64,000 bases of DNA, from NCBI GenBank assembly GCA_030652335.1, contig JAUSAW010000006.1:96499-160498 (forward strand). Direction: 5' to 3'. This stretch comes from Gammaproteobacteria bacterium. GTDB taxonomy: Bacteria; Pseudomonadota; Gammaproteobacteria; Francisellales; CACEW01. A model generated the notes under the pieces. The model saw only the letters and a list, made by a program, of their open reading frames with translations, was not told the DNA's origin and made no database searches. Positions 23,763 to 25,310 of the stretch are shown here, piece by piece. The position numbers and the translations under genes were made by a program. Position 1 is the stretch's first letter, and each line of letters starts with the position of its first letter.

Positions 23763-24983
23763 CTAATTCACTTTTTGTAACATAACGGCAATACGAGCTA
23801 GGGCATTATATTGACGGGCCGCTTCATTTGAATCCAATGTATTAATAGCTTGTTCAAGTTTTACTTCTTGAATTAACTGCGTAGCTTGTAACATTTGCTG
23901 GTTTTGAGCCGCTTTAAGATTTTGATACTGTAAATAGTTATTAAGGGCGAGCATAACCGCGACTGAGCGTAACACTTGTGGCGTTGAAGCAACTGACAAT
24001 TGTTGGAACCAGGTTTGGTTCGTTGCTGGATCAGGTATATTGCTTAAGGGTGCAGTTACGGCGGCATTTAATAGGGCCATTTGGCTATCTAAGCCATCTT
24101 TTTGGTCGGGACTATTACTCACAGCGATAGTTGTTAATACAGATTGAGCCGCGCTAATGATATTCATTTGATAGGTATTATGGTTTTGGTTGGCTGTATT
24201 TAGGCTTGAGCCTATAAGGGCATTAATGTAATTGTTGCCATTTAGTGTTTGTTGCAGTTGTGTACCACCTAAGGCAGAGGGGTTCGTTTGACTTAAGGGT
24301 TGGGGAGTAAGTAAAGCAAGGGCAGAATTCGTGGTCATTATTGATCCTTGGCATGTGCCAAGTTTACTTCCAGTGCTACAACCGGATAGGCTAGAGGGGT
24401 TTAAGGTATTTTGTATTACAGAAGCTTGGTTAATGCTGCTTGGCACAAGTTGTTGCATGATTTGATAGGCTGATTGGCCCCATATAAAATTTAAATTAGT
24501 AGGCAGCAGCATGGCATTTGCCAGAGCTTGATTTTGAATGGTTTGGTTCCACTGAGCAACCGATAACTTATTGGTATCTTTGACATCCGTATCCAAGTTT
24601 TGAATGGCTTTTATTAGGGAGCCACTTCCTGCTTGTTGAGTACCCCCTGGCCCTAAATTTGGCGCCGGGTTGGGATTATAAATAGTGGGTGGCGCTGTCG
24701 TATAAGTAGAGTTGGTAGCGGGTGCAGAATTAGGGATAAGAGGCGGCGCTTGGGAAATTATCCCAGTCGGCCTTTTCGTGAAATTATAGGGCGGATTAGT
24801 TGCTACTGGGGTGGTCGTACTAGCCGCAGGAGTAGCTGGAGTAGTAGGAGCAGCATTAGACTGGGTAGTATCGATAAAGGGATTAGCATAAGGCGTATTC
24901 GCATAAGCTAAGCCAGCAATAACCGCAGAACTAACTGCTATAGCTATAATTGATTTTTTAAGTAATCTCATAATAGTACTCAC
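23763..24983 (-). CDS. Secreted Pro/Thr/Gln/Asn-rich protein, possible IcmX analogue
   Basis: 406 aa with signal peptide MSTIMRLLKKSIIAIAVSSAVIAGLAYA. A low-complexity N-terminal third is followed by a Gln/Leu-rich helical C-terminus. The IcmX assignment rests on position, size and localisation only. Confidence 0.4.
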   Translation of the reverse strand: MSTIMRLLKKSIIAIAVSSAVIAGLAYANTPYANPFIDTTQSNAAPTTPATPAASTTTPVATNPPYNFTKRPTGIISQAPPLIPNSAPATNSTYTTAPPTIYNPNPAPNLGPGGTQQAGSGSLIKAIQNLDTDVKDTNKLSVAQWNQTIQNQALANAMLLPTNLNFIWGQSAYQIMQQLVPSSINQASVIQNTLNPSSLSGCSTGSKLGTCQGSIMTTNSALALLTPQPLSQTNPSALGGTQLQQTLNGNNYINALIGSSLNTANQNHNTYQMNIISAAQSVLTTIAVSNSPDQKDGLDSQMALLNAAVTAPLSNIPDPATNQTWFQQLSVASTPQVLRSVAVMLALNNYLQYQNLKAAQNQQMLQATQLIQEVKLEQAINTLDSNEAARQYNALARIAVMLQKVN

Positions 24984-25310
24984 TTAGCTTTTTAATAAAT
25001 TCGGATTGGAGGGAGCATTGCTTGGTATAAGCGGTAAATTATAATTCGAGGGATTAAGCGAGTTAGTATTTACATAAGTTTGTTGGCTCTGCTGCAATTG
25101 CTTTTGCATGGTTTGATAGCTTTGGTTTTGCTGAGTAATAAAACTAGACGTGCTAGGGGCGCTCACAGCGTCTGTTTGCCCACTACTATTACTATTAAGC
25201 CACGGATTAGTAGACGAAGCAGAAGAATCTGCAAAAGCTAGGGTTGCCATTAATAAGCTTAAGCAGCTCATACATAATATGCTTTTTTTCATGCTATTTA
25301 CTTTATACAT
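24984..25310 (-). CDS. Small secreted Ser/Gln/Asn-rich protein
   Basis: 108 aa with an AGGGGA Shine-Dalgarno sequence before the ATG at 25310 and a signal peptide ending LAFA|DS. Its stop abuts the start of the next gene (24984/24983). Confidence 0.5.
   Translation of the reverse strand: MYKVNSMKKSILCMSCLSLLMATLAFADSSASSTNPWLNSNSSGQTDAVSAPSTSSFITQQNQSYQTMQKQLQQSQQTYVNTNSLNPSNYNLPLIPSNAPSNPNLLKS

Follow-up and report, generated by a model that had tools for sequence, protein, structure and literature searches.

The stretch of DNA analysed here, 64,000 nucleotides (nt) of contig JAUSAW010000006.1 from a Francisellales gammaproteobacterium (assembly GCA_030652335.1, positions 96,499 to 160,498 of the forward strand; hereafter the window), carries a compact type IVB (Dot/Icm-type) secretion gene cluster at 20.5–35.2 kb on the minus strand. 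Directly after dotA, this cluster encodes two proteins rich in Ser, Gln, Asn, Thr and Pro, orf108 and orf406. Our analysis indicates that orf406 is very likely a strongly diverged IcmX, the VirB5-like component of the Dot/Icm-type system encoded here, as the first-pass annotation of the window had suggested. This assignment is carried by a profile–profile match to validated IcmX, by reciprocal profile searches, by the match of one family member to the curated IcmX model and by linkage to dotA. The protein is better described as a variant than as a plain IcmX member because it fails the equivalog model, carries an N-terminal arm of about 90 residues, has no recognisable counterpart of the canonical N-terminal and middle motifs and is encoded after dotA on the same strand, not after icmW.

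Relationship of orf406 to IcmX

As a mechanically called open reading frame (ORF), orf406 spans 23763–24983 and comprises 406 amino acids (aa) from a GTG at 24983. The deposited protein has 402 aa, and the alignment of homologs also begins at the ATG at 24971 (MRLLKK...). This start leaves a 12-nt spacer after the TAA of orf108, and the earlier statement that the stop of orf108 abuts the start of orf406 (24984/24983) was an artefact of reading from the first GTG. The features of the gene are as follows.

23763–24971, minus strand: orf406, putative divergent IcmX-family (VirB5-like) protein of 402 aa when started at the ATG at 24971; a hypothetical protein in the NCBI annotation (Q7V63_03545)
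24900–24971, minus strand: predicted Sec signal peptide, read by eye, MRLLKKSIIAIAVSSAVIAGLAYA/N (slash, predicted cleavage site), followed by a conserved NP[FY] motif
24630–24899, minus strand: Pro/Thr/Ala/Asn-rich N-terminal extension of about 90 residues, predicted to be disordered (predicted local distance difference test, pLDDT, 30–40)
24513–24626, minus strand: long N-terminal helix, residues 120–157 (GTG numbering), SLIKAIQNLDTDVKDTNKLSVAQWNQTIQNQALANAMLL, modelled by AlphaFold2 at low to moderate pLDDT, with a conserved LDxDVK..N...WNQ pattern
23847–24023, minus strand: region aligned by hhalign with the IcmX C-terminal helix, residues 321–379, TNQTWFQQLSVASTPQVLRSVAVMLALNNYLQYQNLKAAQNQQMLQ

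The signal peptide combines a K-rich n-region, a hydrophobic core and an AYA/N site, all read from the sequence, and a periplasmic location is predicted. Behind it, the extension carries conserved PxY[ND]F and GPGG motifs. Ser, Gln, Asn, Thr and Pro together make up 50% of the mature protein and 62% of its N-terminal 90 residues (P 21%, T 20%). In the AlphaFold2 models, the signal peptide is followed by the helix at 120–157, then by a variable middle that contains a pair of Cys residues, and then by helices from 248 to 404; the helix at 120–157 is a candidate equivalent of the N-terminal helix of IcmX and VirB5. Residues 336–404 form one long Gln/Leu-rich helix with pLDDT 80–92, which agrees with the Gln/Leu-rich helical C-terminus read from the sequence earlier. 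Mean pLDDT is 59 for the full-length model and 72 for a model of residues 116–406, with 80–92 in the C-terminal half.

Homologs with 45–52% identity are present in five other assemblies, and a word-indexed protein search returned only six close relatives. A profile search of 1.84 billion representative proteins gave 28 matches at E≤0.001, one of which is an unrelated repeat protein, leaving 27 credible members. The family spans about 300–490 aa and shares a signal peptide and the C-terminal motif TWFQQLSxASTPQLLRSxAIxLAxNNYxxYQ; its distant members are longer (455–490 aa), with longer Ser/Thr/Ala-rich N-termini. A cluster look-up of the family yielded no informative names, tblastn of orf406 against plasmids gave no match, and a profile scan of genome contigs returned only two loci in metagenome-assembled genomes (MAGs). 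Judged by its conservation, orf406 is a real conserved gene and not a chance ORF.

An NP[FYW] motif recurs across the whole family (ADFNPF, ANPFID, NNPYS), no more than a few residues away from the predicted site of signal-peptidase cleavage. In orf406 it lies in residues 25–38 (window 24860–24900), and a similar STNPW is found in orf108. NPF is a ligand motif of eukaryotic EH domains; a connection between the two is a speculative lead.

An independent IcmX reference set was derived from metagenome contigs scanned with an alignment of the DotA N-terminus that included the L. pneumophila DotA segment taken from a PDB match. The scan yielded 79 loci, many of them canonical, with icmX and icmW on one strand and icmV and dotA on the other. 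The ORFs downstream of the approximately 151-aa ORF at the icmW position in 25 canonical loci were aligned as A10. The A10 profile matches 'IcmX (IcmY)' of PDB 9NGY over its full length (E=1.9e-126), and one member, whose neighbour is IcmW, scores 554 bits on the NCBIfam model NF038225 (IcmX_IVB, cutoff 500). Coxiella-like members of A10 reach only 31–87 bits, and two members (L081 and L074) have no score at all, so the IcmX_IVB model covers only IcmX of the Legionella type. Pfam contains no IcmX family, and canonical IcmX has no Pfam match.

Aligned with hhalign, the orf406 family profile (A2, 28 sequences) matched A10 with a probability of 94.4% (E=8.5e-8, 59 columns), a result reproduced in a separate run. 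The match held against the 13 Legionella-like IcmX sequences alone (91.2%, E=1e-6, 76 columns) and against A10 without its three most divergent members (89.5%), whereas control alignments of DotB, DotA and IcmW gave 0.3% or less. It places residues 321–379 of orf406 (TNQTWFQQLSVASTPQVLRSVAVMLALNNYLQYQNLKAAQNQQMLQ) opposite the C-terminal helix of L. pneumophila IcmX (QWIKQINDASPATVQKEIAILLAEINYQMYLDRQIQERILLT, sequence from PDB 9NGY). Under relaxed settings, the alignment is collinear from the signal peptide to the C-terminus, with low confidence outside the C-terminal helix.

Reciprocal hidden Markov model (HMM) searches of the 4,089 ORFs from all fetched loci gave a concordant picture. Beyond its own family, the A2 HMM first found two canonical-position IcmX ORFs (L081, 7.8e-6; L060, 6.9e-4), and the first matches of the A10 HMM beyond IcmX were orf406-family members (1.8e-4 to 1e-3). 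For an HMM built from Legionella IcmX only, the best non-canonical match was again a family member (L004, 2.6e-4). When the 28 family members were compared with 18,950 NCBIfam models, the single best match was IcmX_IVB (E=3.5e-4, in one member). At the profile level, the orf406 family is thus related to validated IcmX, the confident part being 59–76 C-terminal columns, and these comparisons show homology to IcmX for the C-terminal 60–80 residues.

Several observations weigh against the assignment of orf406 to IcmX. orf406 does not reach the 500-bit equivalog cutoff of IcmX_IVB, with no NCBIfam match at E≤0.1, and in the A10 HMM search the window protein itself is below significance (E=0.66). 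A search of PDB sequences, a set that does contain the DotA–IcmX complex 9NGY, found no IcmX at E≤10 with single proteins, with profiles A1, A2 and A5 or with member P0015. The confident match covers 59–76 of about 400 columns and falls in a helix rich in Gln and Leu, whose composition could make scores too high, and the hhalign probability drops to about 50% when only the six closest orf406 homologs are used. In addition, icmW, the usual neighbour of icmX, was not found in the window with the IcmW HMM. Of the IcmX profile searches of the kind proposed earlier, those with the curated model (E≤0.1) and with single orf406 were negative, and the profile–profile comparison was positive.

These points bear on the alternative that orf406 has no relation to IcmX and is a secreted protein of the low-complexity or coiled-coil type (an adhesin, a translocated substrate or a periplasmic component specific to the lineage, for example), its likeness to IcmX being compositional. 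The shortness of the profile match, its location in a biased region, the high HMMER bias scores of these proteins, and the lack of a direct match in NCBIfam, PDB sequences or Foldseek would fit such a protein. However, some positions of the matched motif (W, AS, P, a basic residue and NY..Y) are not compositional and keep the same order and spacing, and the unrelated control profiles stayed at 0.3% or less. The reciprocal best non-self matches among the 4,089 ORFs are exactly the orf406 family and IcmX, and no curated model matches a family member better than IcmX_IVB does. Furthermore, an orf406-family gene is fixed beside dotA in clusters that hold no other IcmX candidate; in the window, the A10 HMM search found none besides orf406. 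We consider this alternative very improbable.

Two further searches returned nothing. orf406 matched no Pfam family at E≤0.1, VirB5-type models included; this test is uninformative for type IVB proteins because canonical IcmX also has no Pfam match. Two AlphaFold models of orf406 compared with the PDB by Foldseek found neither IcmX nor VirB5, only long-helix noise (ciliary coiled coils and BAR domains), and thus neither sequence (Pfam) nor Foldseek similarity links orf406 to the VirB5 family.

Compared with L. pneumophila IcmX (IcmY; PDB 9NGY/9NH0; NF038225), orf406 shares a size in the range of about 400–470 aa, a (predicted) Sec signal peptide, the C-terminal motif W..QL..AS....[KR][ES].A.[LM]LA..NY..Y and, in the AlphaFold2 models, a helical N-terminus, a variable middle and long C-terminal helices. 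Both genes lie next to dotA and icmV, and both evolve fast relative to the cytoplasmic machinery. Despite these similarities, identity is 17% or less outside the C-terminal helix, and the IcmX motifs YLxNLGxYLGYD, DPVSQxxLNILGTPDxSYC and NFIRY are not recognisable in orf406. Canonical IcmX also has no equivalent of the Pro/Thr-rich disordered extension that precedes the first helix of orf406, with NP[FY] at the predicted mature N-terminus. The orf406 gene follows dotA on the same strand, whereas canonical icmX follows icmW on the opposite strand, in a divergent icmW–icmX operon; Legionella loci carry icmW beside icmX, in contrast to the window. Within the window, linkage of orf406 is therefore to dotA and icmV and not to icmW.

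The orf108 gene and its possible origins

orf108 starts 9 nt past the stop codon of dotA, with a GGGGA Shine–Dalgarno-like sequence ahead of the start. Given this spacer and the 12-nt spacer that follows, dotA, orf108 and orf406 are packed like one operon.

24984–25310, minus strand: orf108, small Ser/Asn/Gln-rich protein of 108 aa with a predicted Sec signal; NCBI Q7V63_03550, annotated as hypothetical
25230–25310, minus strand: predicted Sec signal peptide, residues 1–27, ...LMATLAFA/DSS, read by eye; position conserved in alignment A4 of the family
25032–25142, minus strand: conserved core, residues 57–93, FPxQQxQxYQTMQxQLQQxQQxYVNxNSLNPxNYNLP

Like that of orf406, the signal peptide of orf108 was read from the sequence and consists of a K-rich n-region and a hydrophobic core, here followed by AFA/D; the earlier reading that each protein has its own signal peptide is borne out as a prediction. 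Ser, Gln, Asn, Thr and Pro constitute 68% of mature orf108, a chain of about 80 residues, compared with a mean of 27% for window ORFs of at least 200 aa, and their dominance in both proteins had been recognised correctly. The core comprises a Gln-rich, putatively helical stretch with heptad-spaced hydrophobic residues and then a NYNLP motif; its invariant residues are F57, Q61, Q63, Y65, Q66, Q71, Q74, Q76, Y79, N81, N83, L85, Y90, L92 and P93.

Four other distinct loci (L001, L005, L006 and L007) have a homolog at the equivalent position, with 36–48% identity and 19 invariant columns; L010 is the organism of L005 from another sample and is not counted separately. A more distant 92-aa homolog (E=3.8e-7; YKQWQKQYQQLQKKYIQQYQLQPKDY) is found at L008:12620-12898, three genes downstream of the IcmX-like gene and not upstream of it. 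Counting the window, orf108 is conserved in six distinct loci, all in the closest sub-clade; the more distant orf406-family loci have no such small ORF. Pfam and NCBIfam gave nothing meaningful for orf108, PDB sequences gave no match, and the word-indexed protein search returned orf108 alone. As judged from this conservation, orf108 is not a chance ORF but a real conserved gene, and the different position of its homolog in L008 speaks for an independent gene.

The first-pass annotation had proposed orf108 as an extra partner that the canonical system does not have. Consistent with this, canonical icmW–icmX loci have no orf108, and orf108 is conserved together with orf406 in the window clade; the partner role itself derives from the operon structure. 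Based on operon position, conservation and an evolutionary rate like that of DotA, we tentatively suggest that orf108 could act in the periplasm as an accessory subunit of the DotA/IcmX-like complex or as a factor in its assembly, a reading held at somewhat less than even confidence. Against it stand two points: a function of orf108 is argued from position and conservation alone, and the L008 homolog is not adjacent to the IcmX-like gene.

Coxiella offers a positional precedent. A non-essential small ORF, cbu1651, lies just upstream of icmX in this organism (PMC4117601), and orf108 might be the counterpart of this dispensable ORF. In six Coxiella-like metagenomic loci, an ORF of 109–218 aa with low complexity and a predicted secretion signal lies between icmW and icmX (L046:8103-8678, L072:8290-8874, L076:8290-8823, L087:8307-8963, L079:6492-6878 and L084:7870-8199), resembling orf108 in position and make-up. 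However, an hhalign comparison of the orf108 family (A4) with these six ORFs, a set that did not include Cbu1651 itself, gave a probability of 13% and aligned the signal peptide only, and homology of orf108 to these small ORFs was rejected. We regard the correspondence as improbable. In most of the Coxiella-like small ORFs, a charged helix is accompanied by a stretch rich in Pro, by NPW repeats and by a NIYAPGG...N.Y motif at the C-terminus, with L046 and L084 a loose fit; they look like an unannotated family, possibly that of Cbu1651. The Coxiella-type IcmX itself resembles orf406 in being shorter and divergent, with a low IcmX_IVB score (31–87 against the 500-bit cutoff), and in having a small low-complexity ORF with a signal directly upstream, although it still follows icmW.

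Alternatively, orf108 could be the leftover 5' part of a longer ancestral IcmX-like gene, a signal peptide and low-complexity N-terminus separated by gene fission or partial tandem duplication. The distant orf406 relatives, which have no small ORF and extended Ser/Thr/Ala-rich N-termini, would be compatible with such an origin. The two signal peptides are also alike, with A[FY]A, next to it Asp in orf108 and Asn in orf406, and then NP[WF] (E=3e-4; 88% over 28 columns), and both proteins have short Y[VN]x and P(L)IP(S/N)(N/S)AP-like motifs. In contrast, no significant similarity extends beyond the signal peptide, either to orf406 or to the N-termini of the long homologs, and orf108 was therefore rejected as a paralog of either. 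Its strongly conserved Gln-rich core has no counterpart in these proteins, and the L008 homolog lies at a different position. This origin is accordingly very unlikely.

The type IVB cluster and related loci

Cluster membership was called by Pfam and NCBIfam scans, which identified DotA, IcmV, DotL, IcmL, DotB, DotD and DotC. The gene order is dotD-dotC-dotB-icmT-dotL-icmV-dotA-orf108-orf406-160aa-338aa-icmL-icmS-like, and the cluster is taken to be chromosomal because housekeeping genes (cyoABCDE, rpoD and rpe) flank it.

High-coordinate end of the cluster, before DotD, minus strand: two ORFs, 198 and 140 aa
33657–34157, minus strand: DotD
32893–33660, minus strand: DotC/TraI-like
31772–32896, minus strand: DotB
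31525–31779, minus strand: IcmT-like ORF, 84 aa
29219–31525, minus strand: DotL/TrbC coupling ATPase
28801–29217, minus strand: icmV, 138 aa (NF038219, E=1.3e-19), directly upstream of dotA as in canonical loci
25320–28799, minus strand: dotA, VirB6-like channel protein, 1159 aa (NF033886, E=7e-76; TIGR04346, E=2e-61; PDB 9NGY DotA, E=5e-41)
23223–23705, minus strand: 160-aa ORF, between orf406 and icmL
22229–23245, minus strand: 338-aa ORF, between orf406 and icmL
21581–22204, minus strand: IcmL/DotI
After icmL, minus strand: IcmS-like ORF, 108 aa (IcmS Pfam domain in orthologs of related loci)

The family matches of the 1159-aa protein confirm that orf108 and orf406 lie directly downstream of dotA. 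Across the related loci, this position is retained: dotA is immediately followed by a gene of the orf406 family in the window and in L002–L009, L013 and L015 (the L007 contig starts inside the upstream gene), and in L001 the orf108–orf406 pair follows dotL. All 12 distinct loci thus have a family member directly after dotA or, in L001, after dotL. In that locus (L001:7655-15547), icmV–dotA has moved to the far side of icmL–icmS and the orf108–orf406 pair remains behind dotL, so that the two genes travel together and separately from dotA.

Comparison with L005, spanning window 20578–35227, separates the cluster into slow and fast parts. DotB, DotL, IcmL, DotD and DotC are 84–92% identical, and the slow group as a whole, with IcmT and the IcmS-like ORF included, 81–92%. 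Identity falls to 61% for IcmV, 55% for DotA, 52% for orf406 and 46% for orf108, and further to 32% for the 160-aa ORF and 22% for the 338-aa ORF. The module that spans the envelope and is exposed is evolving much more rapidly than the motor in the cytoplasm, and the similar rates of orf406 and DotA are as expected of interacting, exposed parts.

Adjacency of a cap-type gene and a channel gene has a parallel in type IVA systems. In the virB operon, virB5 and virB6 are adjacent and co-directional, with virB5 first. The VirB5/TraC/TrwJ systems resemble the window in this adjacency and common direction; the window order, dotA and then the icmX-like gene, is the reverse, and no pilin gene is evident in the window.

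The 160-aa and 338-aa ORFs, which have no signal peptide and no family match in Pfam or NCBIfam, are extremely divergent among related loci. They may be lineage-specific adaptors or effectors within the cluster. Identification of the 160-aa ORF as IcmW was rejected (hhalign probability 0.3%, and no IcmW HMM match in the window). Behind the IcmS-like gene, where the cluster ends on its 3' side, a 229-aa ORF (20578–21267, minus strand) has an apparent signal peptide and no family match in Pfam or NCBIfam; in L005 and L006 this position is likewise filled by ORFs. The C-terminal tail of DotA (about 100 residues, approximately 1065–1159; window 25320–25600) is rich in Gly, Ala, Gln, Ser and Lys and aligns only loosely with the tail of L. 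pneumophila DotA. A promoter and terminator scan gave counts at or below shuffle expectation. Outside the secretion cluster, 9056–10396 on the minus strand encodes a protein of 446 aa in which Schlafen AlbA_2 and HATPase_c_4 domains are combined.

Proposed role and implications for type IVB systems

The in-situ structure of the Legionella machine describes IcmX as VirB5-like, with a signal peptide, an N-terminal helix, an extended domain and C-terminal helices, and shows an IcmX pentamer topping the DotA pentamer and closing its channel (bioRxiv 10.1101/2025.06.23.660953, also PNAS 2025). In Legionella, IcmX sits on DotA; the L. pneumophila DotA–IcmX channel is closed at rest, and the cap is pushed outward when it is activated. 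IcmX and DotA are regarded as equivalents of VirB5 and VirB6, a pentameric tip on a pentameric channel (PMC12857230).

By analogy, orf406 probably caps the DotA channel. The protein would be exported by Sec and its signal peptide removed, after which the N-terminal helix and the conserved C-terminal helices may assemble into a pentameric helical bundle. This bundle would stand atop the DotA pentamer on the machine's central axis, keeping the channel closed at rest, and would be pushed outward on activation. For pentamer formation, contact with DotA and gating, this model relies on inference from the Legionella system.

A broader proposal, which we consider doubtful, is that IcmX-type caps are universal but hyper-divergent in type IVB systems, co-evolving with DotA, and are not a Legionella invention. 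In the lineage studied here, the cap would have become a two-gene module of orf108 and orf406, in which the Pro/Thr-rich, NP[FY]-tipped arm and the Gln-rich subunit would form a host-exposed tip; host range would then be set by the part of the machine that varies most and is most exposed.

In comparative studies of Legionellales, IcmX has been called Legionella-specific, gained in the Legionellaceae (PMC8896642; repeated in PMC11338181). The 500-bit cutoff of IcmX_IVB and the missing Pfam family probably explain these statements, and IcmX outside Legionella is already known in Coxiella. The present finding amounts to a useful correction and a usable search profile; the system itself is of a known kind. 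In the 2025 in-situ structure, DotA–IcmX is the machine's central gate, and this is difficult to square with most type IVB systems being without IcmX. The window and its related loci provide a very likely hyper-divergent IcmX homolog beside dotA in uncultured Gammaproteobacteria, annotated until now as hypothetical, and alignment A2 can serve as a search profile in other genomes from which IcmX is still missing. Two lineage-specific additions, orf108 and the arm of orf406 rich in Pro and Thr, are candidate host-facing parts. Taken as IcmX, orf406 supports a universal VirB6/VirB5-like DotA/IcmX core, in keeping with the equivalence view (PMC12857230).

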